DNA of 64,000 nt from Phycisphaerae bacterium (GTDB lineage Bacteria > Planctomycetota > Phycisphaerae > Phycisphaerales > SM1A02): NCBI GenBank assembly GCA_016873335.1, contig VGXN01000002.1, positions 4,785-68,784 of the forward strand, read 5' to 3'. Numbering within the stretch: the first letter of the stretch is position 1; each line of letters opens with the position of its first letter. The translations under genes and the position numbers were made by a program. This document shows positions 23,993-58,725 of the stretch, one piece after another. The notes beneath the pieces are model-generated. The model was not told the DNA's origin and ran no database searches. It saw only the letters and a program-made list of their open reading frames with translations.

Positions 23993-24109
23993 GTGCGTGC
24001 TCACGCTGCAGGTGTATCGCATCCCGCGGCAGTGCGCAACGCACCCGCGCTGCGCTTCTGCGCGCCGCCCCCCTCGCAGGGGTATTCTCGGCGCGTGCCC
24101 AGTGCGCTC

Positions 24110-25642
24110 ATGAGCGTGAATGTCGATGGTCGACCGCTGACGCTCCTTGAGGTGCGCGCGGTGGCGGATGGCAGTCCTGTGCAACTCTCGCCCGCGGCGA
24201 AGGAGCGGATGCAGGCGTCGCGTCGTGCGATGCTCGCGCAAGTCGCCACGGGTGGCGCGTTCTATGGCATCAATACGGGGTTTGGCAGCTTTGCGCAGGT
24301 GCGGCTCAGTGCCGAGCAACTCCGCCAGGTCCAAACCAATCTGATCCGATCGCATGCGAGCGGTGTGGGCGAGCTGCTGCCGACGGAGTGCGTTCGCGCC
24401 ACGATGCTCGTGCTCGCCGCGAGCCTCGCGCGCGGACATTCGGGCGTTCGCGCGGAGGTGGTCGAGCGCATCGTTGCGCTGCTCAACGCGGGCATCACCC
24501 CTTGCATCCCTTCGCGCGGATCGGTTGGCGCATCAGGCGATCTCGCGCCGCTCGCGCATTTGGCGCTCGCGCTGCTCGGCGAAGGGCATGTGTCCGTGCG
24601 TGGTGGCGCATTGGATGCGAAGAGCGCGCTGCGCGCAGCGGGCATCGAGCCGCTCGAACTCGATGCCAAGGAAGGGCTCGCGCTCATCAACGGAACGCAC
24701 ATGATGGCCGGGATCGGTGCACTCGCTGCACATGGTGCCCTGCACTTGATGCATGCCGCAGTCTGTGCGAACGCGATGGCGATCGATGCCTGTCGCGCCT
24801 CCGCGGCACCGCTCGATCAGCGCATCCATGCAGCGCGGAACCAACATGGGCAGTCGCGCATCGCCGCGGCGCTCTCATCGCTGCTCGATGGATCCACGAT
24901 CGGTCCCTCGCATGCGAACAGCGATCCGCGCGTGCAGGATCCCTACTCGCTTCGCGCATCACCCCAGGTACTCGGCGCCGTCCTCGATGCCGTGCTCCAC
25001 GCCACGGGCGTGATCGAGGCGGAACTCGGTGCGGTCACGGACAACCCGCTCGTGTTCACCGATGGCGGCGAGTGTGCGATCCTGTCCGGCGCGAACTTCC
25101 ACGGCATGCCGCTGGCCATCTCGCTCGACGTCCTGCGCATCGCGCTCTGTCATTTGGCCGGCATCGCCGAGCGCCGCATCTACTGGGCGTTGTCGGGGCA
25201 TGACCGCGAGAGCCACCTGCCCCCGCACCTCGCGGCGGACGGTGGGTTGCAGAGCGGCTTCATGGTGGTGCAGTATGCGGCCGCCGCATGCTGCAACGAA
25301 CTGCGCACGCTTGCCTATCCATCGAGTGTTGGAAACATCTCCACCTGCGCGGGAATCGAGGATTACAACAGCATGGGAGCCACAAGCGCGCTTCACGCCG
25401 CCGATGCGCTTCGGCTTGCGCGCGACGTGATCGCGTGCGAACTGCTGGTGATGGGTCAGTCGCTCGAACACCAGCGTCCGCTCACCAGCGGTCGCGGTGT
25501 CGAGCGCGCACATGCGATCGTCCGCGAGTGCGCCGCGCCGCTCACCGTGGACCGTCCGCCGGCACCCGATATCGCCGCGATTTCAGCGCGCATCGCAGCG
25601 GGCGCCTTCCGCGTGCCCGCGCTCGACTTGCCTGGGGTATGA
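24110..25642 (+). CDS. hutH: Histidine ammonia-lyase
   Basis: MSVNVDGRPLTLLEV...YGINTGFGSFA...LIRSHA...GSVGASGDLAPLAH contains the MIO-forming ASG triad. The upstream 200 codons of the track ORF were rejected. Confidence 0.9.
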   Translation: MSVNVDGRPLTLLEVRAVADGSPVQLSPAAKERMQASRRAMLAQVATGGAFYGINTGFGSFAQVRLSAEQLRQVQTNLIRSHASGVGELLPTECVRATMLVLAASLARGHSGVRAEVVERIVALLNAGITPCIPSRGSVGASGDLAPLAHLALALLGEGHVSVRGGALDAKSALRAAGIEPLELDAKEGLALINGTHMMAGIGALAAHGALHLMHAAVCANAMAIDACRASAAPLDQRIHAARNQHGQSRIAAALSSLLDGSTIGPSHANSDPRVQDPYSLRASPQVLGAVLDAVLHATGVIEAELGAVTDNPLVFTDGGECAILSGANFHGMPLAISLDVLRIALCHLAGIAERRIYWALSGHDRESHLPPHLAADGGLQSGFMVVQYAAAACCNELRTLAYPSSVGNISTCAGIEDYNSMGATSALHAADALRLARDVIACELLVMGQSLEHQRPLTSGRGVERAHAIVRECAAPLTVDRPPAPDIAAISARIAAGAFRVPALDLPGV

Positions 25643-25675: not shown

Positions 25676-27340
25676 ATGAGCACCGTCCAAGAGCGTGTCA
25701 TTCGGGCGCCGCGGGGAACCGCGATGACCTGCAAAACCTGGGCCGCCGAGGCTGCGCTTCGGATGCTCATGAACAACCTCGATCCCGAAGTCGCGGAACG
25801 CCCCGACGATCTGATCGTGTACGGCGGTCGAGGGCAGGCGGCGCGCTCGTGGCCCGCGTTTGATGCGATCTGTGCCAGCCTGCGCTCGCTCGCTCCCGAC
25901 GAGACGCTCCTCGTGCAGAGCGGCAAGCCCGTGGGCATCGTCCGCACACATGCCGATGCCCCGCGCGTGCTGATCGCCAACTCCAATCTCGTCCCGCACT
26001 GGGCGACCCAGCAGCACTTCGATGACCTGTGCGCGCGAGGGCTGATGATGTTCGGTCAGATGACCGCCGGCAGCTGGATCTACATCGGCACGCAGGGCAT
26101 CTTGCAAGGGACCTTCGAGACATTCGCCGAGTGTGCACGGCAGCACTTCGGTGGCACGCTGAAGGGCACACTGAATGTCACCGCAGGCTGCGGCGGCATG
26201 GGCGGCGCACAACCGCTCGCCATCACCATGAATGAGGGCACCTGCCTCATCGCCGACATCTGCCGCGAGCGCTTGGAGAAGCGCGTCCACGATCGGTACC
26301 TCGACGAGTGGCATACGGATCTCGACACGGCCATCGACCGTGCTTTGGAACTCAAGCGCCGCAGCGAAGGAATCTCCGTCGGCGTTCTCGCGAACGCAGT
26401 CGATCTGCTGCAGCGGCTCTCCGACCGTGCGGTCGTTCCCGACACACTGACCGACCAGACCAGCGCGCACGATCCGCTCGAGGGCTATTACCCGCAGGGA
26501 CTCACGCGCGAAGCGGCGGATGCGCTGCGCACGCAGGATCCCATTCGCTATCAGGAGCTGAGTACCGCGAGCATGGAGCGGCATGTGCGGCTGATGGTCG
26601 ACTTTCTGCGCGCAGGCAGCAAGGTGTTCGACTACGGGAACAACATCCGTCAGCGCGCGCTCGACCATGGATTTGCGGACGCGTTCGCCTTTCCTGGGTT
26701 TGTGCCCGCCTACATCCGCCCGCAGTTCTGCAAGGGGCGCGGGCCCTTCCGCTGGGCGGCGCTGTCAGGTGAACCCGAGGACATTCGTGTCACTGATGAG
26801 GCGGTCCTGGAACTGTTCCCCAAGGATGAGAGCCTGCGGCGCTGGATCCGCATGGCGCAGAAGCGCGTCGCGTTCCAAGGACTTCCCGCGCGCATCTGCT
26901 GGCTTGGTCTTGGCGAACGCCACCGCGCAGGGCTTCGCTTCAACGAACTGGTTGCACAAGGGAAGGTCAAGGCGCCGATCGTGATCGGGCGTGATCATCT
27001 CGACTGCGGCAGCGTGGCGAGCCCCAACCGCGAGACCGAGGCGATGAAGGACGGCACGGATGCGGTGAGCGATTGGGCGCTGCTGAACTTTGCGGTGAAT
27101 ATCGCGAGCGGTGCATCGTGGGCGAGCTTCCATCACGGCGGTGGCGTCGGCATCGGTTTCAGCCAACACGCCGGACAGGTGATCGTGGCCGACGGAACGC
27201 CCGAAGCGGCGCGGCGTTTGGAGCGCGTGCTCACGAATGATCCGATGACGGGCATCTTCCGCCACGCGGACTCGGGCGAAGAGATCGCACAGCGATGCGC
27301 AGACACGCTGGGGGTGAAGATTCCGATGCGTGATTGGTGA
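25676..27340 (+). CDS. hutU: Urocanate hydratase
   Basis: …[50 protein letters not shown]…[20 protein letters not shown]… is typical of HutU over its full 554-aa length. Confidence 0.9.
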
Positions 27341-32413: not shown

Positions 32414-33084
32414 GCCGAGCGCTCCCGCAGCGCGCGCAGGCCGCGCCCTGCGCCCGCATAGATGTCGTAGCGCACCAGCTTGCTCTCGATTTGCGCGTCC
32501 GGTGGACAGAGCAGGCTCGGCGCGCCATGCGGCCGCTTGACCACGATGCGCCGCGTTCCCGTCGCCGCAGCGGCAAGCAGCAGTGCATCGGCGTCCCCAT
32601 CGTCACCAACCGCAGCTCGCACCAGGCGAATCGACTTCTGCGCGAGCGCACTGCCTTGCTTGGGCGGATACATCGGATCGAGATAGATGGCGGACCATTC
32701 GCCGCGAAGCGTCGGCAGCAGTTCGGTTGCGTTGCCGCCTTGCAACTCGACTCGCGCAGCCACGAGAGACAACTTCGCATCGCTCTGGGCGCGCTGCAGC
32801 CCGTCCGCGAGAACACGCAGCACGATCGGCGAGCGCTCGATCGCGAGAACATCGCTCCCCGCAGCCGCGAGCAGCCAGGCATCACCGCCAAGTCCTGCCG
32901 TCGCATCCACGATCTTGCCGCGTCCGCCGCACGCGCGCACGAGCGCCAACTTCGCCACACCGCGCAGCGACACACGACGGAAGTCGACACAGACCCCGCG
33001 ACCACTTGGGTCGTCGGACCATGCCATTTCCATCCGTCCATCCGGATCGATGCGTGACACGACGGTGGCGTCGGCTTCAACCAT
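32410..33084 (-). CDS. rsmJ: SAM-dependent 16S rRNA m2G1516 methyltransferase RsmJ-like
   Basis: …VVDATAGLGGDAWLLAAAGSDVLAIERSP…VIYLDPMYPPK… matches the RsmJ (DUF548) pattern. The start was set at M16 of the track ORF, clearing the divergent CBS gene. Confidence 0.7.
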   Translation of the reverse strand: MVEADATVVSRIDPDGRMEMAWSDDPSGRGVCVDFRRVSLRGVAKLALVRACGGRGKIVDATAGLGGDAWLLAAAGSDVLAIERSPIVLRVLADGLQRAQSDAKLSLVAARVELQGGNATELLPTLRGEWSAIYLDPMYPPKQGSALAQKSIRLVRAAVGDDGDADALLLAAAATGTRRIVVKRPHGAPSLLCPPDAQIESKLVRYDIYAGAGRGLRALRERSA

Positions 33085-33107
33085 GCCCGCAGTATTACAC
33101 TCGCGGC

Positions 33108-34493
33108 ATGCCGACTGCCACGACCGCACCCGTTTACAGCAGCATTCTCGACACCATCGGCAATACGCCCCTGCTGAAGATCCAGCGGCTCGATACGGGG
33201 CCCTGCGAGCTGTTCGCGAAGCTCGAGAACCTCAATCCAGGGCAGTCGATCAAGGATCGCATCGCGCTCACCATGATCGCGGCGGCGGAGCGGGAGGGGC
33301 GACTGCGCCCGGGCGGTCGCATCATCGAAGCCACCGCAGGAAACACGGGCATCGCGCTGGCGCTCATCGCCGCCGTGAAGGGGTACCGACTGACCGTCGT
33401 GATGCCCGACAAGATGAGCGAAGAGAAGATGGCGCACCTGCGCGCGATGGGCGCGGAGGTCGTGCTGACCCGTTCCGATGTGGAGAAGGGTCACCCCGAG
33501 TACTACCAAGACATGGCGGAGCGCATGGCAGCAAAGGATGCAAACTCCTTCTATGTCAATCAGTTCGGCAACTCGAACAATGTGAAGGCGCACTTCGAGG
33601 GAACGGGACCGGAGATCTGGGAGCAGATGGGCGGACGCATCGATGCCTTTGTGGCGGGCGTCGGGTCGGGTGGCACCATCGCCGGTGTCGGCGCGTTCCT
33701 GAAGGCGCACAACCCGTCCTGCGAGATCGTGCTTGCGGATCCTGTCGGGTCGATTCTGGCGCCGCTCGTGAACGAAGGAAAGACCGTGAAGCCAGGCTCC
33801 TGGCTGGTGGAGGGAATCGGCGAGGACTTCGTCCCGCCGATTCTTGACCTCAAGGTTGTGGACAGCGCGATCGCGGTGTCCGACGCGGAAGCGTTCGCTT
33901 CCGTGCGCGAACTGCTGCGCGCAGAGGGCATTCTTGCGGGATCGAGCGTTGGCGTGCTCATGCATGCGGCGCTGACCTACTGTCGTCGGCAGCGCGAACC
34001 CAAGCGCGTGGTCACACTGATCTGCGACAGCGGCGCGAAGTACCTGTCGAAGATGTACAACGACTTCTGGATGCGGGATCAGGGATTCCTCGGGCGAACA
34101 CCCACGGGCGACCTGCGCGATCTCATCGCGCGGCGCCACGACCTGTGCGAGGACTTTGTGCTGCAGCCGACCGTTCCGCTTGCGATTGCCATTCGCCGCA
34201 TGCGGCTCTTTGGTGTCAGCCAGCTCGCAGTGCTGGATGCCAACGACACCCTGGTGGGCATCATGGACGAGAGCGATGTGCTGCTCGCGCTCGCGCAGCG
34301 ACCGAATGCCGCGGACGCGACCGTGGCCGAGCACATGGTGACCCGCGTCGAGACGATCGCGCCCTCGAAGCCGATCGGCGACCTCTTCCCGATCTTCCGC
34401 GCGGATCGCGTGGCGGTCGTCCATGACGGCAGCCGCTTCTACGGATTGATCACCAAGATCGACCTTATCAACCACTTGCGCAAGCAGGGTTGA
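33108..34493 (+). CDS. Cystathionine beta-synthase (PLP fold-type II domain plus C-terminal CBS pair)
   Basis: …IGNTPLLKIQRL…AKLENLNPGQSIKDRIALTMI…EATAGNTGIALALIAA…GVGSGGTIAGV… is followed by a CBS-pair region (…PLAIAIRRMRLFGVSQLAVLDANDTLVGIMDESDVL…FYGLITKIDLINHL). Confidence 0.85.
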   Translation: MPTATTAPVYSSILDTIGNTPLLKIQRLDTGPCELFAKLENLNPGQSIKDRIALTMIAAAEREGRLRPGGRIIEATAGNTGIALALIAAVKGYRLTVVMPDKMSEEKMAHLRAMGAEVVLTRSDVEKGHPEYYQDMAERMAAKDANSFYVNQFGNSNNVKAHFEGTGPEIWEQMGGRIDAFVAGVGSGGTIAGVGAFLKAHNPSCEIVLADPVGSILAPLVNEGKTVKPGSWLVEGIGEDFVPPILDLKVVDSAIAVSDAEAFASVRELLRAEGILAGSSVGVLMHAALTYCRRQREPKRVVTLICDSGAKYLSKMYNDFWMRDQGFLGRTPTGDLRDLIARRHDLCEDFVLQPTVPLAIAIRRMRLFGVSQLAVLDANDTLVGIMDESDVLLALAQRPNAADATVAEHMVTRVETIAPSKPIGDLFPIFRADRVAVVHDGSRFYGLITKIDLINHLRKQG

Positions 34494-46597: not shown

Positions 46598-47493
46598 GAC
46601 AGCGCAAGCCGCGCTGCACCGCGCACGCCACTTGCGTCGCCATGCACTGCGCTGCGCAGCGGCGTCGTGAAAGCATCGGAGAAGAGTCGCTCGCCAAGAA
46701 GCGCAGGTACTCGCTCATAGATCTCGCGAATGTTGCTGAGACCACCGCCGAGCACAATGACATCCGGGTCGATCAGATGCACGACACCAACGAGCGCATC
46801 AGCGAGCCGTGTGCACAGCAGTTCGATCACCCGCTTCGCACGCTCCTCCCCTGCCGCGGCGCGCTCTGCGATCACGGACATCGCCGCCGCCTCTCCACCA
46901 AGCGCCGCGTACTCGTGCTCGAGTGCCGGTCCCGCGAGGAACTGTTCGGTACAGCCGAACAAGCCGCAGTAGCACGGGCGCGAGCGGCGCTCTGCAGCAT
47001 CGGTTCCCGGCATCTGCGTGTGCCCCCACTCCCCGGCGACCGCGTTTCGCCCAACCACGATGCGACCATCGACCACCACGCCTCCACCGATACCCGTCCC
47101 GAGGATCGCAGCGAAAACAACATGCGCGCCAGCGGCTGCACCATCATGCGCCTCACTGAGGGCGAGGCAGTTGGCGTCGTTTGCTCCGCGCACATTTCGG
47201 CGAAGCAGTTTGGACAGATCCCCGATGAGATCCCGACCATTGAGGCACGTGGAGTTTGCGTTGCGGTGCAGACCCGTTCGTGGCGACACGCTGCCCGGGT
47301 AGCCAATGCCGAGAGGACACTCGCACTTCGCCACCGCATCGAGGCGGCGCACCAACTGCGCGATGACAGCGAGTGTCCCCGCGTAATCGCCTTGCGGCGT
47401 CGAGACGCGTGGGCGTTCCACTTCCGTTCCGGAGGCATCCATCAGGCACGCTGCGACCTTCGTGCCGCCGAGGTCGATGCCAATGCGCATCAT
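46594..47493 (-). CDS. ROK-family sugar kinase (N-acetylglucosamine/glucokinase-like)
   Basis: MMRIGIDLGGTKVAA…VRGANDANCLALSEA…AILGTGIGGGVVVDG…GEWGH…RPCYCGLFGCTEQFLAG is the ROK Zn motif. The start overlaps the hutG stop (ATGA at 47490-47493). Confidence 0.8.
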   Translation of the reverse strand: MMRIGIDLGGTKVAACLMDASGTEVERPRVSTPQGDYAGTLAVIAQLVRRLDAVAKCECPLGIGYPGSVSPRTGLHRNANSTCLNGRDLIGDLSKLLRRNVRGANDANCLALSEAHDGAAAGAHVVFAAILGTGIGGGVVVDGRIVVGRNAVAGEWGHTQMPGTDAAERRSRPCYCGLFGCTEQFLAGPALEHEYAALGGEAAAMSVIAERAAAGEERAKRVIELLCTRLADALVGVVHLIDPDVIVLGGGLSNIREIYERVPALLGERLFSDAFTTPLRSAVHGDASGVRGAARLALS

Positions 47494-48443
47494 GACGGAA
47501 CAGGGAGCGCACGGATCACGCAATCGAGCAGCGCGGCGCCAAGACGCGCAGTGCGCCCACCGATATCGAGCGGCGGTGAACACTCCGCAAGTTCGATGCC
47601 CGCCACCTTCCCGCTGCCTGCGATCCGCCGCAGCACACTGCGCAGCGCCGCATCGGGCAGAATGCCCATCGGCGATGGCGCGCTGACGCCAGGCGCACTC
47701 GACGCGAGGAACGCATCGAGATCAATGCTGAGGCAGATGAGATCGACCGATCCGATGAAGCGGTCGACGATGGCTGCCAGAGCGGACTCCTGCGATGCCG
47801 CAAACGCATCCGCATCCACGATCTGTGCGCCATGCGCGGCGGCGGACTGCAGCAGCGCGGGTGTGTTGTGCGCGGGCTGCATCCCAAGCAGCAGGTAGCG
47901 AAAGGGCGCACCGATCAGCGCGCTATGCCCATGCACTTGCAGGAACGGCGATCCCGAGTGGGGATGCCCGCGCGAGAGTGGGCGCATATCGACATGTGCA
48001 TCGATGTTGATGCATCCCACCACCGAACCCCTTGAAGCCGCCTGCACAACGCCAAGCCAGTGTCCAAACGCCTGATCGTGACCGCCGCCGAACACGAGCG
48101 GGATTCCACCACCGACCCGCACTGCTGCGACGGCCGCTGCGAGCGCGCGCTGCCATGCGAGGACATCACTCTTGGGACCTGAGATGTCCCCTGCATCGAA
48201 CAGCGCGAATCCAGCCGGGGCGGGCAAGTTCGCGCACGCGGTCCGAAGCGAGCTTGGCCCCTCCGCGGCGCCTGGTCTCCCGTGATTTGCCCGCACACCC
48301 GCGTCCGAGGGATACCCGATGACCACGAGTGGTCGGCGATGATGCCGCTGCGCAGGTTCCGCATCCCACGGCTGCATCGCCTGATGCCAGCGCTGCGCCT
48401 CGGGCTGCGGTCCATCGTCTCGGCCTCGCCACTGCCACGCCAT
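47490..48443 (-). CDS. hutG: Formimidoylglutamase (arginase/ureohydrolase family)
   Basis: …VVIGYPSDAGVRANHGRPGAAEGPSSLR… is the HutG-type G.p.d.GV..N.GR.GA..GP motif. The metal ligand motifs are GGGHDQAF, INIDAHVDMR and SIDLDAF. Confidence 0.7.
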   Translation of the reverse strand: MAWQWRGRDDGPQPEAQRWHQAMQPWDAEPAQRHHRRPLVVIGYPSDAGVRANHGRPGAAEGPSSLRTACANLPAPAGFALFDAGDISGPKSDVLAWQRALAAAVAAVRVGGGIPLVFGGGHDQAFGHWLGVVQAASRGSVVGCINIDAHVDMRPLSRGHPHSGSPFLQVHGHSALIGAPFRYLLLGMQPAHNTPALLQSAAAHGAQIVDADAFAASQESALAAIVDRFIGSVDLICLSIDLDAFLASSAPGVSAPSPMGILPDAALRSVLRRIAGSGKVAGIELAECSPPLDIGGRTARLGAALLDCVIRALPVPS

Positions 48444-49289: not shown

Positions 49290-49377
49290 CGATGAATTGG
49301 AGGCAGTTGAAGCGCTGGGCGCATGAGCCGCGGATCTTGAGTCGCTCATGGGGTTGCAGCCTATCATTCACTCCCCC

Positions 49378-49986
49378 ATGGAGCGTGATGCACCACTCGA
49401 CGCAGAGGCGACCGCCGCACTCGACCACGTCCGCGCACTTCTGAAGTACATCGGAGAGGACCCGACGCGCGAGGGGCTCTTGGACACGCCGCGCCGTGTG
49501 GCGCTCGCGCTGCGCGAGCACTTCGTCGGCTACACGATGGATCCCGCGAAGGAACTGTCGCGCACTTTCTCGGAGATCGAGGGCTACGACCAGATGGTGC
49601 TGCTCACCGGAATCGATGTGCACAGCCACTGCGAACATCACATGGTTCCGTTTGTCGGCAAGGCGCATGTGGCGTACATCCCAAGTGGACGCGTGGTGGG
49701 GCTTTCCAAGTTGGCGAAGGTCGTGGAGATTTACGCCAAGCGACTTCAGGTGCAGGAAAAGTTGACCGCGCAGATCGCCAACAGCATTCAAGAGCACCTG
49801 CAGCCACTCGGCGTCGCGGTCGTCGTCCAGGCGCGGCACTTCTGCATGTGCTACCGCGGCGTGCGCCAGCCACATGCGTGGACGACCACCAGCAAGTTGA
49901 CGGGCGTGTTCTTGGAGGACCCAGCCACGCGCAGCGAGTTCTTGCGCCTCATCTCCATCGGGCAAGAACCCGCAACAGGCTTCTGA
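49378..49986 (+). CDS. folE: GTP cyclohydrolase I
   Basis: …IGEDPTREGLLDTPRRVA…HSHCEHHMVPFVGKAHVAYIPSGRVVGLSKLAKVVEIYAKRLQVQEKLT… is the FolE signature. An alternative start is at 49348. Confidence 0.9.
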   Translation: MERDAPLDAEATAALDHVRALLKYIGEDPTREGLLDTPRRVALALREHFVGYTMDPAKELSRTFSEIEGYDQMVLLTGIDVHSHCEHHMVPFVGKAHVAYIPSGRVVGLSKLAKVVEIYAKRLQVQEKLTAQIANSIQEHLQPLGVAVVVQARHFCMCYRGVRQPHAWTTTSKLTGVFLEDPATRSEFLRLISIGQEPATGF

Positions 49987-49999: not shown

Positions 50000-50962
50000 T
50001 CAGCCCGCGCGCCCGACCGCATCGATCGCGATGCACTCGAACGCCACGTGCGCAGCAAGCAGCGCGGTGATCCCGGCGACATCGCGCGCGGGACAGACCT
50101 CAACCACATCCGCACCAACCAGCTGCGCGCCTGCGAACGCGCGCACCTGAGCAAGCAGCGCACCCGACGACAGTCCGCCACACACGGGAGTTCCCGTGCC
50201 AGGCGCAAAGGCGGGATCCGCACAGTCCATATCGCACGAGAGATAGAGCGGCGCATCACCGATGCGGCGCCGAAACGACTGCACATGCGCTGCGGCATCC
50301 GCCGCATTCGCATGGAACGCAGCCGCAGGAATCGTTGTCATCCCCTTGTCGCGCGCAAAGGCGAGATCATCGAGCGTGTTCAGTCCGCCGCGCTGCCCAA
50401 TCAGCAGCGTGCGCGTGGGATCGATGCATCCATCCTCGACTGCCCGCCGCAGAAAGGACGCGTGGCTGAACGGCTCGTTCCACACGCGGTCCACCGTGTC
50501 GACATGCGCGTCAAGGACGACCAATGCCAGTCCGCTTCCAGGCCGACCGCAGCGTTCCCATGCGGCGCGAATGTTGGCGAGCGACACCGAGTGATCGCCA
50601 CCAAGCGCCAACAGGTGCGCGCCGGCACCGCCGAGCGTCTTCGCGAAGTCCGTGACCAGATCGAGATTGTCCGCACAGGAGAAGGGCGCCACGGGCGCAT
50701 CACCCGCATCTGCCAAGGAGAACACCTTCGCAATGTCCACCTGCAACTCAATGCTCGCGGGCTTCACATACTGGCTCGCTTCACGCACCGCACGCGGACC
50801 GAAGCGCGCTCCGGGGTGGAAGGTCGTGCCACCATCGAATGGGATGCCGTACACGACCCAGTCGTGCGTTCCCGCCGCATCTTCCAATCGAGGAAAGCGC
50901 ATGAATGTGGCGAGCCCAGCGAACCGCGGCTGAACCCTTCCGCTCGGCAGTTCTGTCGGCAT
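50000..50962 (-). CDS. Arginase-family ureohydrolase (agmatinase/guanidino-acid hydrolase-like)
   Basis: …FAGLATFMRFP…GIPFDGGTTFHPGARFGPRAVREAS… is followed by the Mn ligand motifs LGGDHSVS, VLDAHVDT and SCDMDCADPAFAPGTGTP. It lies 24 nt downstream of astD on the same strand. Confidence 0.8.
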   Translation of the reverse strand: MPTELPSGRVQPRFAGLATFMRFPRLEDAAGTHDWVVYGIPFDGGTTFHPGARFGPRAVREASQYVKPASIELQVDIAKVFSLADAGDAPVAPFSCADNLDLVTDFAKTLGGAGAHLLALGGDHSVSLANIRAAWERCGRPGSGLALVVLDAHVDTVDRVWNEPFSHASFLRRAVEDGCIDPTRTLLIGQRGGLNTLDDLAFARDKGMTTIPAAAFHANAADAAAHVQSFRRRIGDAPLYLSCDMDCADPAFAPGTGTPVCGGLSSGALLAQVRAFAGAQLVGADVVEVCPARDVAGITALLAAHVAFECIAIDAVGRAG

Positions 50963-50986
50963 GTGCGCAGGATAATCGGGCGCGGA

Positions 50987-52492
50987 TCAGAAGGGATCCA
51001 TGCCTGGCGGCAGTGGCGCAGCGTCGGTTCGCTCCTCCAGGTGGGCAACGGGGAACGCACAGGAGTCCACGCCAAACGCCGCTGCAGGCCGATGATTCCC
51101 CGACAATCCAAGCCCGCCGAACGGCAAGCGACTGCTCGCGCCCGCAGTGCCGACATTCCAGTTCACGCAGCCAGCGCGAAGCCGCGGCGAGATCGCTTGC
51201 CAGCGCGCAGCGTCCGCCGTGAAGACAGCCGCGGCAAGACCGAAGCGTGTGGCATTCGCCTGCTCCACCGCCTCGTCATCGCTGTCCACCACCGCCACCT
51301 GCAGCAGTGGACCGAAGACCTCCTCATCCGCCTCGGCACTGAAACGGTCGACACGAAGCACGCCTGGCGTCAGGAACCAGCCTTCGCGTGCGGGCGCGCG
51401 TGCCGCGAGCAGCGACACGCACCCTTCGCGCACGCGCCGCGACTGGAACGCGACCACCGCCTCACGCGCGGCTTCACGGATGAGTGGCCCCATGAACACA
51501 CCCGCCTCGTCGCCACCACCCACACGAAGCCGTGAAGCGACTTCCACCAACAAATGCATGAACGCATCCGCGACGCCGCGCTGCACGATCACGCGGCGCG
51601 TGCACGTGCAGCGTTGCCCTGCCGTCGCGAACGCGGACCGCACGCACTCCACCACCGCTTGCTTGAGATGGCAATCATCGAGCACGATGGCGGGATTGCT
51701 GCCGCCCATCTCAAGCGCCACGATGCGCCCCGGTCGATCGAGATTCGCCTGCAGGATCCGCCGACCCACGGGCCACGATCCCGTGAACAAGATGCCATCG
51801 ATGTGCTCGTGCGCGGCAAGCGCCGCAGCGCCCCCAGCGCACGCTTGCACCACGTTGAAGACACCCGGCGGAAATCCTGCCGCGTCCGCGAGCTCGGCGA
51901 GCAGCTGCCCGACCGCTGGCGTGCGTTCACTCGGCTTGAGCACCACCGTGTTGCCAAGCAGCAGCGCGGGCACGAAGTGACCGTTGGGCAGGTGGGCAGG
52001 AAAGTTGAACGGCCCAAAGACCGCCATCACGCCGTGCGGACGAAACGCACAGACACCGCGCCGCGTCGGCGACAGATCGACGCCAAACCCCCGCACGCGA
52101 TCGAGTGTGCGTTCCTCCACCGTGATCGTCACCTTCTCCGCGAGCGCCTTCGCTTCCAGGAGCGCCTCCCCGCGCGTCTTGCCCACCTCGAGCACCAGCA
52201 GATCCGCGATGCGCGACTCGTTCGCCACCACGACATCACGCCAGCGCAGCAGCGCCGCGTGCCTTTCTTGTGCAGCCGTACACGCCCACGCTCGCCCCGC
52301 CGAACGCGCAGCGGCGACCGCACGGTCAATGTGCGCACGCACGGGGGCGGCGTTCCACACGATGGTGGTCGGCTGCGAAGGATCGGCGCTGCAGATCATC
52401 TCCTCCCCCGCCGCGGGAAGCGTGTGCCAAGAACCGCCGATGAAGTCCGCGGGAGCTTGGCGCAGGAACCCGCGCCGGACCGCCTCGCTCAT
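50987..52492 (-). CDS. astD: N-succinylglutamate 5-semialdehyde dehydrogenase
   Basis: It is collinear with E. coli AstD as I recall it: RPHGVMAVFGPFNFPAHLPNGHFVPALLLGNTVVLKPSE, ALEMGGSNP, AGQRCTC.RR, and the AstD-specific C-terminus VNWN…GASSRLPFGGLGLSGNHRPAA…PPGMDPF. Confidence 0.85.
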   Translation of the reverse strand: MSEAVRRGFLRQAPADFIGGSWHTLPAAGEEMICSADPSQPTTIVWNAAPVRAHIDRAVAAARSAGRAWACTAAQERHAALLRWRDVVVANESRIADLLVLEVGKTRGEALLEAKALAEKVTITVEERTLDRVRGFGVDLSPTRRGVCAFRPHGVMAVFGPFNFPAHLPNGHFVPALLLGNTVVLKPSERTPAVGQLLAELADAAGFPPGVFNVVQACAGGAAALAAHEHIDGILFTGSWPVGRRILQANLDRPGRIVALEMGGSNPAIVLDDCHLKQAVVECVRSAFATAGQRCTCTRRVIVQRGVADAFMHLLVEVASRLRVGGGDEAGVFMGPLIREAAREAVVAFQSRRVREGCVSLLAARAPAREGWFLTPGVLRVDRFSAEADEEVFGPLLQVAVVDSDDEAVEQANATRFGLAAAVFTADAARWQAISPRLRAGCVNWNVGTAGASSRLPFGGLGLSGNHRPAAAFGVDSCAFPVAHLEERTDAAPLPPGMDPF

Positions 52493-53577
52493 GCGCGGCT
52501 CCGACGGCGCGGCGCTGCACCGCTGCGGCGGCGTGCGCCCGTCAGCGGCACTGCACGCCCCTGCGCATCGAACGCCGTGACGGCGATCTTCGTTCCCTTC
52601 GATGCTCCGAGCGTTTCAATGACGCGCTCGGGCAGCAGCAGTGTTCCTGCGCGAAGCGAGAATCCGCTGCGCACAGCACGGAATCCTCGCGCACCCGCGC
52701 AGGAGACGATCCCGCGGTGGGAACCGCGCGCGCCCGCGCCACCAAGCGGCAGCACCGCCGATGCGTTCACGATCGGAATGTTCGCCGTCACTGCTTCGAG
52801 ATAGGGACCGCCATCGAACGGATCGACATGCTCCTGCGGCTGGAATCCGAGCTTCGTCAGCATGTGCAGCGCAGGCAGCGTTTCATCGCCGACCTTGCCC
52901 ACCAACTGGCGCGCCTCGGGTGGCAGCAGCGACGTGTAGATCTCGACGGACGGGAAGAGCTTGAGGATGAACTCCTTGCTGCGCTGATTGAACGTGTCCG
53001 CTTCGGTGTACGAAAGATTGATGAAGCGGCGTCCGAGATAATCCCACAGCGTCGATCGACTGTCGGTCGTGAGCGCACCCATCATCTCCGCGATGATGCG
53101 CTTCTGAAACTGCTGCGGGCGAGCGGCGATGAACTGGAAACGCGTATGGGAGAGGAACGCGCCAAGCTTCTGCGGATGACCGCGGTATCCGGGCGCGAGA
53201 ATCAGTCCGCCAATCTCGCTTGGTCCACTCTCATCCTTGTCCAGTTGGATCGTCACATGCACCTGGCCCGTTCCGAGATCCTTGCTGTAGTGCTCGCGGC
53301 GTCGCACGCGAAAGAACAGGTGCGGGTGACCTGGCCATGAAATCCGCGAATACACCGTGCTTGTGCCGACCACCGACCCCGAGTCCGCGTCCTCCAGGAC
53401 GAACACGAACTCGCGTCCGCGGGCGTCACGCACCGAGCCCGCGAACGCGCGGTGGCTCCGATCAAGTTTCGCGGCGAGCGCATCACGATCCTGCGGCAGA
53501 TTGAAGGAGTGCACGAGCCGCGCAAGCTTCAGCAGCTGCGGCATGTCCTCGACGGTCGCTTCACGGATGACGAACAT
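52489..53577 (-). CDS. astA: Arginine N-succinyltransferase
   Basis: It is collinear with E. coli AstA as I recall it: …FVFVLEDADSGSVVGTS…, …SEIGGLILAPGYRG…LGAFLSHTRFQFIAA…IIAEMMG…, …LWDYLGRRFINLSYTEAD…, …DPFDGGPYLE…. ATGA overlaps astD. Confidence 0.85.
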   Translation of the reverse strand: MFVIREATVEDMPQLLKLARLVHSFNLPQDRDALAAKLDRSHRAFAGSVRDARGREFVFVLEDADSGSVVGTSTVYSRISWPGHPHLFFRVRRREHYSKDLGTGQVHVTIQLDKDESGPSEIGGLILAPGYRGHPQKLGAFLSHTRFQFIAARPQQFQKRIIAEMMGALTTDSRSTLWDYLGRRFINLSYTEADTFNQRSKEFILKLFPSVEIYTSLLPPEARQLVGKVGDETLPALHMLTKLGFQPQEHVDPFDGGPYLEAVTANIPIVNASAVLPLGGAGARGSHRGIVSCAGARGFRAVRSGFSLRAGTLLLPERVIETLGASKGTKIAVTAFDAQGRAVPLTGARRRSGAAPRRRSRA

Positions 53578-53578
53578 G

Positions 53579-55051
53579 TCACGCCACCTTGCCGAGCGCG
53601 CGCTCGATGATCTCGAAGACGGGAGTGAACTGCGCGGGCTCCATCACGCCAATGGGCGGCAGCAGACGCAGGTGATAGGGATCGTGACCACAGGTGAGCG
53701 CAATGACACCCTCGTCGAACATCGCTTTGAGCAGCACATTCAAGCGCTCCTTGCTGCCGCCGAGCGGTGAGAGACGCATCATGCCGCCCGTGCCACCGAC
53801 ATGCGAAAGCTGCGGTCGCCCGAAGCTGTCGAGGACAGGCGGGAAGAACTCGGGGCGGCGCCGCACAAGATCCTCGGCTCGTTCGCGGAACGCGCGGTGC
53901 AGCGCAGCGATGCGCCCACTCGGTCCGTAGTAGCCGCCGTCGCGCAGCGTTTCGAGCGCACGCCGACCGACATGGAATGCGCTCGCACTCGCGCTGAAGG
54001 TGCCCGCAAGCAGCCCAGGCTGCGGGTTGAACTCCTCGCGGAACAGACACGCACACACTTGACTCAGTTTTCCAACGGTGGCGACATCGATGTACTCACC
54101 GAGCCCGAGCGTCTCAAACGCAAACATGCACTCGGTGCGACCGAACGATTGCACTTCATCCGCCCACACCGGGATGCCGCTCTCGCGGCAGATGCGCATG
54201 AGTGCTTCAAAGTACGAGCGCGGCGCAACGCGGAAGCCGCCCTCACCCTGCACCAACTCCATCACGAAGCACGCGTGCTGCTTCGGATAGCGCGCGACAA
54301 GTTGCTTCAGATGCCAGACAGCGATTTCGGTCGAACGAGCGCCGAGCGTCTCGTCGTAGAACGGCATGTAGTCGACGAGGATGTTCTGCACCAGACCCTG
54401 CCGATAGCCGGCCGTGTCGCCGATCTGACTCATGGTGGTCGAGCGCCCCATGAAGCAGTCGGCGAAGGCGATGATGCGCGGTGCGCTGCCCGTCTTCTGC
54501 TGGCACACCTTGAGTGCGTTCTCATTCGCCATGCAACCGGAGTTGGTGATGAAGCAGTGGCGCAGCGCGCTCGTGCGCGCCGCCTCCTTCTGGAGGATCT
54601 CAGCGACCGCGAGCACATCGGCATTGGGCTGCAAGTGGCCGCCCATGCAGATATCCGAGAGCGCGCCGATCACGGCGGCCTCCACCATGCGGGGATCCGA
54701 GTGTCCAAACATGTGAACGCCGATGCCGCTGATCATGTCCCACTTGACGCTGCCATCGGCGAGCTGCACCAGCGCGCCATTGCCGATGCCCGCACCGATG
54801 TAGGGGTACATCGTGGGCCGCCCGCGGAGCGTGTTGTGCTGCTGCAGCCACGCCGCAGCGGCGGCCGCGCGCGCAGGATCCGCTGGCCGAACGCCGGTGA
54901 TTCCCGCCTGGAAACGCCGCAGTTCCGACAGAATCGCATCGACCGCGGCGCGAACGGCGGGCACCTGCATCAGCGGCGGCGTTCCATCGAGCGCACTGAC
55001 ACTCGCAGCAGTCGCAGCGGGTTGGGTGGGCGCCGAGGTCATGTTCGGCAT
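53579..55051 (-). CDS. Class-III (PLP fold-type I) aminotransferase with N-terminal extension
   Basis: …FITNSGCMANENALK…, …VMELVQGEGGF…, …IPVWADEVQSFGRTE…, …DVATVGKLSQV… (Schiff-base Lys context). At 490 aa it is longer than AstC/ArgD and lysine-6-aminotransferase-like by eye. Confidence 0.75.
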   Translation of the reverse strand: MPNMTSAPTQPAATAASVSALDGTPPLMQVPAVRAAVDAILSELRRFQAGITGVRPADPARAAAAAAWLQQHNTLRGRPTMYPYIGAGIGNGALVQLADGSVKWDMISGIGVHMFGHSDPRMVEAAVIGALSDICMGGHLQPNADVLAVAEILQKEAARTSALRHCFITNSGCMANENALKVCQQKTGSAPRIIAFADCFMGRSTTMSQIGDTAGYRQGLVQNILVDYMPFYDETLGARSTEIAVWHLKQLVARYPKQHACFVMELVQGEGGFRVAPRSYFEALMRICRESGIPVWADEVQSFGRTECMFAFETLGLGEYIDVATVGKLSQVCACLFREEFNPQPGLLAGTFSASASAFHVGRRALETLRDGGYYGPSGRIAALHRAFRERAEDLVRRRPEFFPPVLDSFGRPQLSHVGGTGGMMRLSPLGGSKERLNVLLKAMFDEGVIALTCGHDPYHLRLLPPIGVMEPAQFTPVFEIIERALGKVA

Positions 55052-56265
55052 GGTACGGGCGGGCGTTCCATGATCCGCTGCATCAGCAGCGCAAGAATCG
55101 CGGCGCGCTCACACAAGCTGTTCACCACCACAAACTCATCCGTGCGGTGCAAGTTGCCGCCGCGGACACCCAGTCCATCCAAGCATGGCAGACCCGCATG
55201 CTGCAGCACATTCGCATCGCTTACGCCACCCGTGGCAACCGCAGTGCACACGCATCCCACCTTCGCCGCGCACTCGACTGCGCACGCCGCGAGCGCTTGC
55301 ACCGCTTCGGTCGCCGGCTTCGAAGGGCGGTTGTGCAGCACTTGAACCGTCACGCGCGGCAGCGCGGACTCGCCCGTCGCAATCGCACGCAGTACGCGTT
55401 CCACTTGCGCGCGCGCCGCTGTGCTGAAGTACCGCGCATTGCCCCACGCTGCCGCATCGGCAGGCACGACATTGGTCGCACCACCGCCTTCGAGCGGACC
55501 GATGTTCAGAATGCAGCCGTTCGCGGGATCGTTCGCCGCAAGCACGGTGCAGATGGACTGCGCAAGCGCATGCACCGCCGACACCCCGCGCGCCGCGTCA
55601 CGCCCCGCATGCGCCGCGCGCCCCTTTGCATCGATGCGAAACTGCGCAGAACCGGGGCGTTCCATCACGAAGTCGCTGCCCACGGCGGGCTCAAGCACGA
55701 GTCCGACATCACACTCCTGCGCCACGCGCTCCAGGATCGCCGTGCTTCGGAAACTTCCCGTCTCCTCGTCGGCGTTCAGCAGGAATGTCCAGTGTGGGTG
55801 CACGCCGACTTCCGCAAGCGACTCGAGCGCCGCGAGTGCCACGATCAGACCACCTTTCATGTCCGCTGCGCCAGGGCCCTCGCGCATGCCCCCCTGCTCC
55901 GCGCCCAGTGATCGGAACGCTCCGAAGGGATCGTGCACCGTGTCAAGATGACCGCTGAGCAGCAGTTTCGGTCCGCCCGAGCTGCCGCCGCTCCGCGCGA
56001 TGAGCACATCGCCTTCATCGTCGCCCGACGCTCCTTCGCGCAGCCACTGCGGACGGTCGCCACCCTTCACGCGTTCCACACGCGCACCGAGCGCCTCGAG
56101 CCGCGTACGCATCCACACGCGCGCCGCATCAAGCCCCGGCCGATGACCGCAACCTGTCGGAACTGCGACAAGCGCCGCAAGATCCGCCTCCATCGATCCA
56201 CGCCTTCGATGCGCCGCATCGATCACGCGCTGCTCGGCGGCGGTGACCCGCGCATCACCGCCCAC
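55039..56265 (-). CDS. M20-family metallopeptidase/deacylase (CPG2/DapE/ArgE-like)
   Basis: …LLLSGHLDTVHDP…, …GPGAADMKGGLIVAL…, …NADEETGS…, …GGATNVVP… The start is the GTG at 56265, preceded by GGAGG with a 6-nt spacer. It overlaps the end of dapF by 11 nt. The rest of the 668-aa track ORF overlaps dapF out of frame. Confidence 0.75.
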   Translation of the reverse strand: MGGDARVTAAEQRVIDAAHRRRGSMEADLAALVAVPTGCGHRPGLDAARVWMRTRLEALGARVERVKGGDRPQWLREGASGDDEGDVLIARSGGSSGGPKLLLSGHLDTVHDPFGAFRSLGAEQGGMREGPGAADMKGGLIVALAALESLAEVGVHPHWTFLLNADEETGSFRSTAILERVAQECDVGLVLEPAVGSDFVMERPGSAQFRIDAKGRAAHAGRDAARGVSAVHALAQSICTVLAANDPANGCILNIGPLEGGGATNVVPADAAAWGNARYFSTAARAQVERVLRAIATGESALPRVTVQVLHNRPSKPATEAVQALAACAVECAAKVGCVCTAVATGGVSDANVLQHAGLPCLDGLGVRGGNLHRTDEFVVVNSLCERAAILALLMQRIMERPPVPCRT

Positions 56266-57226
56266 GACACACCTCCAGCGCACCACCCCAGACGCCATCG
56301 AACACATGCGTGGCTGGTCCCCGCATACGAACGGAACCACCCTGCGCATCCCACTCAATCCGCAGCCGTCCCCCCGGCAAGTCGATGTCTGCCGTGTGCG
56401 CGCAACGTTCTTCCAGAGCGCCCGCCACCAGCACGGCACTCGCACCCGTCCCGCACGCGAGCGTGATGCCCGAGCCGCGTTCCCATGTCCGCATGCGAAG
56501 ATGATCGCGCGCGCAGACCGCCGCGAAGTGCACATTGATGCGCTGCGGGAAGAACGCGTGATGCTCGATCGCTGCGCCCACACGCTCAAGCGGAACGCGA
56601 TCGGGATCACCGCACCAGAACACGATGTGCGGATTGCCCATCGACACAAGCGTCGCGGTCGGCTCGGTACGCGAAGCGTTCCACCACCCAAGGTCGGCAT
56701 CCGCATGACTGCCGACGCGAGCAGCATGCGCTGCGATCGCCTCGCGCCACATCGCCTGATCGAAGCGAACACCCACAAGCCGATCGTCGTTCGATGCGCC
56801 ACCCCAACGCACGCCCATCCGCGCGGCGGACAAGATCGGCGCACCCATGTCGACTTCCGCCTCGGACACGAGCCCATCGGCTCCGCGCCACCACCGGACC
56901 GCGAGCACGCCGCGCCCCGTTTCCACGCGCAGCGGATTCGCGGCAGAAATCCCGCGGTCCACCACGAACTTCGCCACACAGCGCAGTCCGTTGCCGCACA
57001 TCTGCGCCTCGCTGCCGTCGGCGTTGAAGATGCGCATGCGCGCATCGGCTGCGCAGCCCACGCTCGGGCGAGCCACCAGAATCACCCCATCACCGCCGAT
57101 GGCGGTGTGCCGATCGCTCACCGCGCGAGCGAGCGCCGCGGGATCCTGCACATGCTCCGCGTCGGCATCGACATACACATAGTCGTTGCCGATGCCGTGC
57201 ATCTTGCTGAAGCGGATGGCGTTCAT
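56255..57226 (-). CDS. dapF: Diaminopimelate epimerase
   Basis: MNAIRFSKMHGIGNDYVYVD…FNADGSEAQMCGNGLRC…VSMGNPH…WERGSGITLACGTGASA includes both catalytic Cys motifs. Confidence 0.9.
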   Translation of the reverse strand: MNAIRFSKMHGIGNDYVYVDADAEHVQDPAALARAVSDRHTAIGGDGVILVARPSVGCAADARMRIFNADGSEAQMCGNGLRCVAKFVVDRGISAANPLRVETGRGVLAVRWWRGADGLVSEAEVDMGAPILSAARMGVRWGGASNDDRLVGVRFDQAMWREAIAAHAARVGSHADADLGWWNASRTEPTATLVSMGNPHIVFWCGDPDRVPLERVGAAIEHHAFFPQRINVHFAAVCARDHLRMRTWERGSGITLACGTGASAVLVAGALEERCAHTADIDLPGGRLRIEWDAQGGSVRMRGPATHVFDGVWGGALEVCRGR

Positions 57227-58683
57227 GCGTCTGGTCGCCGTACTTCGCCAAGGTCGATGACCACCTTGCCGCGGCGATAGAAGTCCGCGTTGATGCGGTC
57301 GCGGTCGATGAAGGTGAACACCAGTCCATTCACGCCCGTCGCGTCCGCGTAGGCGAAGTCGCCCCAGTGCGGTCCTGCGTAGCGGCGGTTGTCATAGGAC
57401 TGCGCGTGGTTGTGAAAGTGGAAGAGCGCGTCGTAGCCCGCCTCGAACATGTTGTTGGATGCCTCGAAGCGCACATCACTGCCCACCTGCACGGGCGTGA
57501 ACTCCACCAGTTCATAGCGCCCCTGCGCATCGAGCCGCAGCAAACCGCCATACTCGGTGCGGCGATCCGCCTGATCACGGTCCGCGATCTCGAACAGATG
57601 CCCCTTCAGCGGCGGTTGACGAAGCGCGTCCCGGGCCACCAGCACCGCAGCGCAGTCGCCCCAGTCGAGGTTCGACGCATGCGCGCGCGGCGTCTCCGCC
57701 AGTTCCGTGCCATACCCCTCGAAGGACGCGCTGTAACGCCGCTCATTCTGTGCGGCCAGCGCCAGGGAAATGTCCTCAAAGAGCTCGTCGCGTGAACGCG
57801 TCAGGAGCGTCGGCTGCGTTCGCGCGACTGCAACGATCACGGCAATGTCCCGCGGCTCAAGCGAAGCGCGGACATCGGGCGGCAGCTTTGCCGCAGCAGC
57901 GCGAGCCTCTTCCCAGAACGCTCGTTTCTCGGGCCTCAGCAGCGCACGCATCCAGAGAATCTCCTCACGGTTCGACGGGATCACGCCGAGATCGTTGGCG
58001 CAGCGGCGCATGTCAAGCACAAACGAGTCGGTCGTTGCAAGCGACTGGTCCGCGAGCAAGTCAAGAATGCGTTGGCGTTCACCCGTGGCGAGCAGCAGCT
58101 CCCAGCAGCGGGCGCGAAGGTTCGCCTCCTTGATCGGATCGCTGCGCAGCAGCAGATCGAGCAGCACCTGCGGCACGCGCTCCTTCCCCCAGAGTTTGCA
58201 CAGCGCGTGATACTCAGGGCGATCGAAGAGTTTGACCGCGAGGATCGGCAGCGGAACCGCCCACGCGCGCACGAGCGTCTGCGTCATGTCCTTCCAGCCA
58301 AGCAGTGCGATGCGGCGACACACCTCGGTGCGCCACTCGTACTGCAGCATGCGCGGCAGGTTGATCTCAAGGACGGACTTCAGCCCCTCTGGGTCGTAGC
58401 GAATCAGCCGCTCCCAAGCCTCGTCGCGCAGTTCGCGCACATAGTCAGACTGCACCACGATGCGCCGCAGCGCCTTCAGGTAGGCGGGATTGGTGGGATC
58501 CGCGTCCAGCAGTTGCATCGCAGCGAGTTGCCGTGCGGGCACGAGGTCGGTGCGCCCGAGCGACTCAAGCGGATCGCCTGCCGGCGTTGCTGCGCAGGAC
58601 GCCATCCATACGCACGAGAATGTCAGCAGCCCTCGCCAACAGCGGCGCAGCAGCCGCGGGCGCGTGCCTTCCGTGGCGTTCAT
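57223..58683 (-). CDS. Hypothetical lipoprotein-like protein with C-terminal HxH...D motif region
   Basis: The N-terminus MNATEGTRPRLLRRCWRGLLTFSCVWMASC is signal/lipobox-like. The middle is helical. The C-terminal …TEYGGLLRLD…ALFHFHNHAQSYDNRRYAGPHWGDFAYADATGVNGLVFTF is faintly reminiscent of JAB/MPN metallo-motifs. The stop overlaps the dapF start (ATGA). An alternative start at 58725 would abut the nfu ATG. Confidence 0.5.
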   Translation of the reverse strand: MNATEGTRPRLLRRCWRGLLTFSCVWMASCAATPAGDPLESLGRTDLVPARQLAAMQLLDADPTNPAYLKALRRIVVQSDYVRELRDEAWERLIRYDPEGLKSVLEINLPRMLQYEWRTEVCRRIALLGWKDMTQTLVRAWAVPLPILAVKLFDRPEYHALCKLWGKERVPQVLLDLLLRSDPIKEANLRARCWELLLATGERQRILDLLADQSLATTDSFVLDMRRCANDLGVIPSNREEILWMRALLRPEKRAFWEEARAAAAKLPPDVRASLEPRDIAVIVAVARTQPTLLTRSRDELFEDISLALAAQNERRYSASFEGYGTELAETPRAHASNLDWGDCAAVLVARDALRQPPLKGHLFEIADRDQADRRTEYGGLLRLDAQGRYELVEFTPVQVGSDVRFEASNNMFEAGYDALFHFHNHAQSYDNRRYAGPHWGDFAYADATGVNGLVFTFIDRDRINADFYRRGKVVIDLGEVRRPDA

Positions 58684-58725
58684 GGCTGCAGTGTAAGGAG
58701 TTCGATCTACACTTCGCTTCGCCAT

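Follow-up and report, generated by a model that had tools for sequence, protein, structure and literature searches.

How a bacterium might carry arginine or ornithine to glutamate through succinylated intermediates when neither AstB nor AstE is encoded nearby is the question raised by a gene cluster of a Phycisphaerae bacterium, located on a 64,000-nucleotide stretch of contig VGXN01000002.1. The whole of this stretch is called the window here, and all coordinates are positions within it unless another locus is named. The cluster is genuine and conserved, and it represents a variant of the route that uses succinyl-CoA to take arginine or ornithine to glutamate, the arginine succinyltransferase (AST) pathway; it carries side by side an amidohydrolase of the M20 family, a class-III aminotransferase, an AstA-family N-succinyltransferase and an AstD-type aldehyde dehydrogenase. 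We favour, with moderate confidence, the reading that these four genes form the core of a route from ornithine, and possibly from arginine, to glutamate, in which the M20 enzyme would act as the analogue of AstE. The displacement of AstE by an M20 enzyme is apparently widespread and seemingly unannotated, and the GabT-like aminotransferase, the missing AstB and an optional ureohydrolase of the arginase fold are particular to the Phycisphaerales.

The absence that gives rise to the question was already reported in a first, sequence-only reading of the window, and it held when the Escherichia coli AstB and AstE proteins, taken from strain MG1655, were searched against the 64 kb by tblastn: no homologue was found, the sole match reaching 23 bits (E = 0.76). 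Neither protein was detected by tblastn in 80 related genome loci, in slices of at most 21 kb each. Seven genes lie head to tail on the minus strand, and they are listed below in the order of their transcription.

57223..58725, minus strand, hypothetical protein of 500 aa with a lipoprotein-like N-terminus, the first gene of the string, with no pathway role assigned
56255..57226, minus strand, dapF, diaminopimelate epimerase (TIGR00652, PF01678)
55039..56265, minus strand, M20 metallo-amidohydrolase (PF01546 and PF07687), PRK07338-like and carboxypeptidase-G2-like
53579..55051, minus strand, class-III (omega) aminotransferase (PF00202), extended by about 80 aa at the N-terminus
52489..53577, minus strand, AstA-family N-succinyltransferase (PF04958)
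50987..52492, minus strand, AstD-type aldehyde dehydrogenase (PRK09457, TIGR03240)
50000..50962, minus strand, arginase-fold ureohydrolase of guanidino-acid-hydrolase type (PF00491)

The junctions, in order from the hypothetical gene, are a 4-nt overlap (ATGA), an 11-nt overlap, a 13-nt overlap, a 1-nt gap, a further 4-nt overlap (ATGA) and a 24-nt gap, and the string ends convergent with folE (49348..49986, plus strand). The sequence-only reading had described six co-directional genes from dapF to the ureohydrolase; their positions, strand and junctions were reproduced exactly, and Pfam and NCBIfam agree with every family that it had named. The seventh co-directional gene (58725..57223), which overlaps the start of dapF by ATGA and is thereby translationally coupled to it, was absent from that description. 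The catalytic and metal motifs are all intact across the cluster enzymes. The start codon of the M20 gene is GTG, with two in-frame ATGs upstream as possible alternatives, and a promoter and terminator scan gave nothing above chance within the gene string.

The M20 amidohydrolase and the AstE step

The best NCBIfam match of the M20 protein was NF005602/PRK07338, a family named only "hydrolase", with 291 bits, about 100 bits ahead of the other families. Models for DapE and ArgE reached only 58–102 bits, and the equivalog models of the two were not matched, as TIGR01246 gave 58 bits (cut-off 362), PRK13009 gave 79 bits (cut-off 284) and TIGR01892 gave 84 bits (cut-off 298). The best solved structure was carboxypeptidase G2 (1cg2, 111 bits) of Pseudomonas sp. 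RS-16, a periplasmic folate-cleaving enzyme that hydrolyses the N-acyl-L-glutamate amide bond, which is the chemistry that a succinylglutamate desuccinylase needs. The window protein differs from carboxypeptidase G2 in belonging to the separate PRK07338 lineage, and no signal peptide was noted in it. Residues H106, D135, E167/E168, E192 and H373 are invariant across ten Phycisphaerales sequences (alignment A2), and we take them, mapped onto the carboxypeptidase G2 ligands, to be the metal and catalytic positions.

A metagenome scan with the M20 alignment retrieved 66 loci of other lineages, on contigs of 33–70% G+C, with homologues of 30–41% identity. An astA gene of the E. coli type was located immediately downstream of the M20 gene in 29 of the 48 loci that had downstream sequence, and among these 29 there were 18 in which the downstream flank reached 3.5 kb or more, of which 17 contained astB and seven contained astD. 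Neither astE nor dapF was found in any of the 66 distant loci. The astA-linked M20 proteins are bona fide members of PRK07338 (419–578 bits). The gene order is astC-M20-astA-astD-astB in one of the loci (L107) and M20-AstA-Aldedh-AstB in Legionella pneumophila (L173, 8001–13117), and an operon of the type M20-astA-astD-astB without astE was observed in Legionella and in many uncultured bacteria (L107, L109, L112, L115, L118, L131, L134 and L160). M20 genes of the family PRK07338 regularly belong to ast operons devoid of astE, and the Legionella representatives of the family are annotated merely as "hydrolase", "glutamate carboxypeptidase" or "carboxypeptidase G2".

Since the family sits in ast operons without astE and its nearest characterised relative cleaves N-acyl-L-glutamates, there is a strong case that the window M20 protein would be an N-succinyl-L-glutamate desuccinylase and a functional replacement of AstE. 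The sequence-only reading had proposed this replacement from the gene neighbourhood, and the proposal is now well supported, both by the affinity to carboxypeptidase G2 and PRK07338, far from DapE and ArgE, and by the position of PRK07338 genes upstream of astA in the absence of astE. The Legionella protein, which is amenable to genetics, is a good candidate for the succinylglutamate desuccinylase that these operons lack. Neither an M20 enzyme as a substitute for AstE nor an ast operon of Legionella was described in the searchable literature.

The window cluster and the Legionella-type operon are alike in having the M20 family upstream of astA and no astE. The Legionella type, however, keeps AstB, has AstA and AstD of the proteobacterial type and has no aminotransferase between M20 and AstA, whereas the window cluster has dapF upstream, the ureohydrolase at the slot of AstB and a divergent M20 protein.

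The partner enzymes, their conservation and the proposed route

The AstD-like protein is the best-conserved orthologue in the cluster. It matched PRK09457 with 469 bits (below the cut-off of 514) and TIGR03240 with 450 bits, and the next aldehyde dehydrogenase family reached 273 bits. It shares 43% of its residues with E. coli AstD, and the top three solved structures were all AstD (324–348 bits), with the best succinate-semialdehyde dehydrogenase at 229 bits. The motifs EMGG, GQRCT and FGGLGLSGNHRP are all present, the last of them at residue 458; it corresponds to the AstD-specific C-terminal pattern FGG.G.SGNHRP, which is located at residue 442 in E. coli AstD and which the sequence-only reading had recognised correctly. 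The protein appears to be a clear AstD orthologue, for which the role of N-succinylglutamate 5-semialdehyde dehydrogenase is proposed.

The AstA-like protein matched PF04958 over its full length (306 bits) and TIGR03243 with 233 bits (cut-off 284), and it shares 29% identity with E. coli AstA over the full length (346 residues aligned), AruF (1yle) being its only solved relative. It is a divergent member of the family, and ornithine and/or arginine N2-succinyltransferase is its proposed activity. The aminotransferase is still further from its AST counterpart: it matched PF00202 with 137 bits, every NCBIfam model scored far under its cut-off, including the argD/astC subfamily model (105 bits against 410), and its alignment with E. 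coli AstC is partial, at 27% identity. Its best solved structures were the 4-aminobutyrate (GABA) aminotransferases PuuE and GabT, at about 90 bits, and it is proposed to act as an N2-succinylornithine 5-aminotransferase. Two loci of a lineage with about 44% G+C (L110, 7950–10772, and L170) carry a PRK07338 M20 gene (481 bits) followed by an aminotransferase 39–43% identical to that of the window, on contigs that both stop inside the aminotransferase gene, so that the GabT-like subfamily is linked to M20 outside the Phycisphaerales too.

Conservation was assessed by a scan of species-representative genomes with the AstA alignment, in which 481 genomes had a relative. The best 80 of these 481, all of them metagenome-assembled genomes (MAGs) of Phycisphaerales/Planctomycetota, were entered into a tblastn census, with 57 species-level loci having enough flank for the upstream genes and 69 being judgeable for the ureohydrolase. 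The string dapF-M20-aminotransferase-AstA-AstD was present in 52 of the 57 loci, an arrangement that, recurring in so many related genomes, is far beyond chance; the aminotransferase lay directly upstream of AstA in 56 of 57, and dapF with M20 lay upstream in 52 of 57. Units of the cluster are nevertheless separable across loci, as the aminotransferase, AstA and AstD stand alone without dapF-M20 in L088, the aminotransferase and AstA alone in L089, and dapF-M20 alone in L096 and L099. The association on which the sequence-only reading had built is conserved from dapF to AstD and less so as far as the ureohydrolase, which was found directly after AstD in only 19 of 69 loci.

In the proposed route, the AstA-like enzyme would N2-succinylate the amino acid, the GabT-like aminotransferase would turn the free delta-amine of N2-succinylornithine into N-succinylglutamate 5-semialdehyde, the AstD orthologue would oxidise the semialdehyde to N-succinylglutamate, and the PRK07338-like M20 enzyme would free glutamate and succinate, which is the job of AstE. 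Because the cluster holds no AstB step, the conserved core would work at the level of ornithine; E. coli and Pseudomonas likewise channel ornithine into the AST pathway. The ureohydrolase would provide an accessory, urea-releasing entry, by removing the guanidino group either from arginine ahead of succinylation, in the manner of arginase, or from N2-succinylarginine once succinylation has taken place. For the window genome and those closest to it, the most plausible role of the ureohydrolase is to feed the core route from arginine, with the release of urea.

The logic of N2-succinylation, omega-transamination, oxidation and desuccinylation to glutamate is common to this cluster and to astCADBE of E. 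coli (aruCFGDBE in Pseudomonas), with which it also shares the AstA-family transferase and the AstD orthologue with its C-terminal motif. It differs from astCADBE in having no AstB or AstE, in an aminotransferase that is GabT-like rather than AstC, in an AstA without His229, and in the presence of the M20 gene and, in some genomes, of the arginase-fold hydrolase. A nearer parallel in one respect is astNOP of Acinetobacter baumannii, in which AstO is an ornithine succinyltransferase and AstN a transaminase, the pair being dedicated to ornithine (PMC12375414). In both systems an aminotransferase adjoins an AstA-family transferase and the succinyl route runs without AstB; however, AstN is an AstC homologue and the AstD and AstE steps are taken from the canonical operon in A. 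baumannii (PMC12375414), whereas AstD and M20 lie within the same cluster in the window.

Several observations weigh against the route proposed here, and the distribution of the ureohydrolase, given in the next section, has to be added to them. The substrates are all assigned from sequence. The M20 protein lies under the PRK07338 cut-off (291 against 357 bits) and is a divergent member of that family. The aminotransferase is, by its model scores and identity, not an AstC orthologue. His229 of E. coli AstA and Pseudomonas aeruginosa AruF, which was treated as a (predicted) catalytic residue in the study of A. baumannii (PMC12375414), is replaced by Gly at residue 230 of the window AstA, and Gly occupies this position in all eight aligned Phycisphaerales sequences. 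The dapF-M20 pair occurs without the aminotransferase, AstA and AstD in L096 (5611–9221) and L099 (about 5672–9200), where a string of hypothetical gene, dapF and M20 is followed by genes on the opposite strand; M20 therefore stays with dapF when the Phycisphaerales cluster is split, and within this order it is linked more faithfully to dapF than to the aminotransferase, AstA and AstD.

The ureohydrolase and the AstB step

The ureohydrolase matched PF00491 with 243 bits, and its closest solved structures were GpuA (219 bits), proclavaminate amidinohydrolase (194 bits) and GbuA (187 bits), with the agmatinases at 163–171 bits. On the agmatinase models it gave 190 bits with TIGR01230, above the cut-off of 174, and 247 bits with PRK02190, below the cut-off of 302.

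Inspection of the substrate pocket, which the sequence-only reading had called for, showed a resemblance to the guanidino-acid hydrolases. Lys67 of the window protein stands at the position of GbuA Arg72 and of the agmatinase Glu, and Lys is found there in 120 of the 120 closest orthologues. In GbuA, Arg72 on loop L2* of the neighbouring subunit meets the distal end of the substrate and has been proposed as a carboxylate binder (PMC9772407); the same position is Glu78 in the Burkholderia agmatinase (BtAGM) and Asn99 in plant arginases (PMC7370999). The residues that hold the amine in agmatinases (BtAGM Glu78, E. coli SpeB Glu69 and Trp68, and the aromatic residue after the DAHxDT motif) were taken from PMC8125230 and PMC7370999. 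The two-residue insertion that bears SpeB Trp68, which lies beside Glu69 and holds the agmatine amine by a cation-pi contact (PMC8125230), is missing from the window protein, and Val is found at the position of the agmatinase Tyr155/Trp165, the aromatic residue after DAHxDT. Loop A, which is long as in GpuA, and the "RRA" motif agree with GpuA and GbuA.

Since Lys67 is invariant, the Trp68 insertion is missing and both loop A and "RRA" follow GpuA and GbuA, the identity of a true agmatinase is improbable for this protein, and its substrate is probably a guanidino compound of anionic character. Three compounds answer to this, namely N2-succinylarginine, L-arginine and 4-guanidinobutyrate, among which sequence alone does not decide. 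The closest solved relatives, GpuA and GbuA of P. aeruginosa, human AGMAT/GDAH and proclavaminate amidinohydrolase, resemble the window protein in the basic cap, the long loop A and "RRA". It differs from these guanidino-acid hydrolases in that the basic residue of the cap is Lys rather than Arg (Arg in both GbuA and GpuA), in having HAS in place of HGT after the catalytic His, and in its context of succinyl-amino-acid catabolism.

The distribution of the gene is patchy. Besides the 19 of the 69 judgeable loci in which it directly follows AstD, it lay 0.8–3.2 kb downstream in five more; it was missing within at least 5 kb in 23 loci and within 1.2–5 kb in 22, so that most clusters are without it. 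No other conserved same-strand gene followed AstD in the clusters that lack it, where the neighbours were an opposite-strand gene resembling a class-II aminoacyl-tRNA synthetase, or sulfatase-like or CotH genes. Orthologues of 54–58% identity are located in unrelated neighbourhoods (L091 and L092). In CP071923.1 (L090, 9012–11011), AstD is reduced to a fragment of residues 228–498, the C-terminal 55% of the protein, with an intact ureohydrolase gene 9 nt downstream, and the locus has lost the other genes of the cluster. CP071923.1 is a complete genome of 5.09 Mb deposited as "Leptolyngbya sp. 15MV", and the other closest relatives of the ureohydrolase are all from Phycisphaerae/Planctomycetota.

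Being patchy in the clusters, present in unrelated contexts and retained beside a truncated AstD, the ureohydrolase may have an independent function. It would then be a general guanidino-acid hydrolase or an agmatinase that merely lies in conserved synteny, and the cluster would catabolise ornithine only, an explanation that we regard as possible, though less than likely. Its score over the TIGR01230 cut-off and the name agmatinase given to its homologues by the sources are in keeping with this, as is the synteny among relatives of the whole region from mraZ to a folD-like gene (PF00763/PF02882), by which adjacency is in part inherited and any inference from adjacency alone is tempered. However, the protein has none of the acidic and aromatic pocket residues of agmatinases and is closer to GpuA, proclavaminate amidinohydrolase and GbuA; the adjacency of AstD and the ureohydrolase, with gaps of 23–98 nt, is kept in separate sub-clades whose AstA identities range from 94% to 54%; and the gene is kept even beside a mere fragment of AstD.

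The sequence-only reading went further and assigned the enzyme to the AstB step itself: AstA would succinylate arginine, the ureohydrolase would split N2-succinylarginine into N2-succinylornithine and urea, and M20 would replace AstE. Of this scheme the last part is well supported, as given above, and the scheme as a whole we consider unlikely. The slot after AstD is the one that AstB occupies in the Legionella-type M20-astA-astD-astB operon, and the pocket appears suited to an anionic guanidino substrate, the invariant Lys of L2* standing where guanidino-acid hydrolases have Arg and agmatinases have Glu (PMC9772407). The recurrence of the AstD-ureohydrolase adjacency in several sub-clades points the same way. 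As for its relatives, the second-closest solved structure is that of proclavaminate amidinohydrolase. This enzyme acts on an N-alpha-acylated arginine analogue. Against the scheme stand the adjacency in only 19 of 69 clusters, with 23 having no ureohydrolase within at least 5 kb, the orthologues in unrelated neighbourhoods and beside the AstD pseudogene remnant, and the AstA sequences, in which no conserved position differs between clusters with and without the ureohydrolase; this proxy for arginine versus ornithine as the substrate is a weak test, as the ureohydrolase may lie elsewhere in the genomes. A succinylarginine ureohydrolase or amidinohydrolase was not found in the searchable literature. 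The replacement of AstB is in sum possible from the position and the pocket but is not established, and the data agree at least as well with a route in which an arginase-like step supplies an ornithine succinyltransferase. That the enzyme would be the first N2-succinyl-L-arginine amidinohydrolase, in a urea-releasing AST pathway of AstA, ureohydrolase, GabT-like aminotransferase, AstD and M20 in which AstB and AstE are displaced by unrelated folds, is equally doubtful.

dapF, the surrounding genes and the meaning of the cluster

The DapF protein scored 259 bits with TIGR00652 (cut-off 115) and has both catalytic-Cys motifs, MCGNG and ACGTG, in its translation, so that dapF looks like an active housekeeping gene. 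As the M20 family never adjoins dapF outside the clade (0 of 66 loci), dapF and the lipoprotein-like gene upstream of it are probably neighbours of the cluster through lineage-specific synteny. The sequence-only reading had itself named as an alternative that M20 and the aminotransferase could be DapE and DapC, and the wider form of this idea, that part or the whole of the cluster is the succinylase branch of diaminopimelate/lysine biosynthesis in which the AstA-like protein might stand in for DapD, is very improbable: dapF does overlap the M20 start and lies upstream of it in 52 of 57 loci, the pair stands alone in L096 and L099, and DapE belongs among the M20 enzymes, but the protein reaches only 58–79 bits on the DapE models against 291 on PRK07338, its family is linked in other phyla to ast genes and never to dapF, an AstD-type dehydrogenase, the best-conserved orthologue here, would be useless in that pathway, and the aminotransferase, AstA and AstD occur without dapF-M20 in L088. 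The low DapE scores weaken this alternative, and the stand-alone dapF-M20 pairs keep a part of it: a second role of M20, doubling as the DapE of the lineage, is a possibility, and it would explain the fixed place of the gene between dapF and the ast genes. No usable statement on DapL in Planctomycetes was obtained from the searchable literature.

The 500-aa hypothetical protein had no Pfam or NCBIfam match, and an open reading frame of similar size, also without a family, is located upstream of dapF in L001, L003 and L096. It was considered as a hidden AstB analogue and rejected in view of its lipoprotein-like signal and the lack of any family match. The window has a G+C content of about 64%, its nearest relatives are lake-water MAGs of Phycisphaerales/Planctomycetota, and its AstA is 92–94% identical to that of JBJTUC010000032.1, RFON01000013.1, VGYQ01000007.1 and SYGP01000042.1; the stretch was also found in many lake-water metagenome runs.

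A second arginase-fold gene (48443..47490, minus strand) barely passed the HutG (formimidoylglutamase) model, with 232 bits against a cut-off of 229. It was rejected as a member of the AST variant, as its HutG match and the presence in the window of hutH and hutU (23510–25642 and 25676–27340, plus strand) make it more simply a formimidoylglutamase. The distance of 20 kb from this gene to hutH and hutU indicates that the histidine-utilisation genes are dispersed and do not form an operon. The hut genes and nearby peptidases of the DPP-IV type fit a peptide- and amino-acid-degrading lifestyle.

Three further features were observed in the window. A redox cluster at 1167–9919 contains, on the minus strand, a MoaA-like radical SAM protein, an NrfD-type membrane subunit, a 4Fe-4S protein and a multihaem cytochrome, facing a molybdopterin oxidoreductase (860 aa) and a NapB-like cytochrome on the plus strand. 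In a 703-aa UDP-glucose/GDP-mannose dehydrogenase (16246–18357, plus strand), about 250 aa are inserted between the central and the C-terminal domain, and this insertion gives a weak match to an intein-splicing domain (26 bits, below the cut-off of 36). A PALP and CBS-domain protein of 636 aa (32583–34493, plus strand), with an N-terminal extension of about 190 aa, resembles cystathionine beta-synthase.

The variant cluster, including any AST pathway in Planctomycetes, was not described in the searchable literature, and a paper on Phycisphaerae genomics did not discuss arginine or lysine metabolism. Genomes that lack astB and astE are all scored as having an incomplete AST pathway. Our data suggest that PRK07338, a widespread family named "hydrolase" at NCBI and present in Legionella pneumophila among others, is the missing desuccinylase; such an assignment would fill this gap in the pathway for many genomes and would provide a large uncharacterised family with a function. 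If the ureohydrolase does act on N2-succinylarginine, this would be a new enzyme activity. For the Phycisphaerales, abundant heterotrophs of freshwater and marine habitats with few cultured members, the cluster predicts that ornithine and arginine set free by protein breakdown are consumed and that members with the ureohydrolase give off urea, not ammonia, as the by-product.

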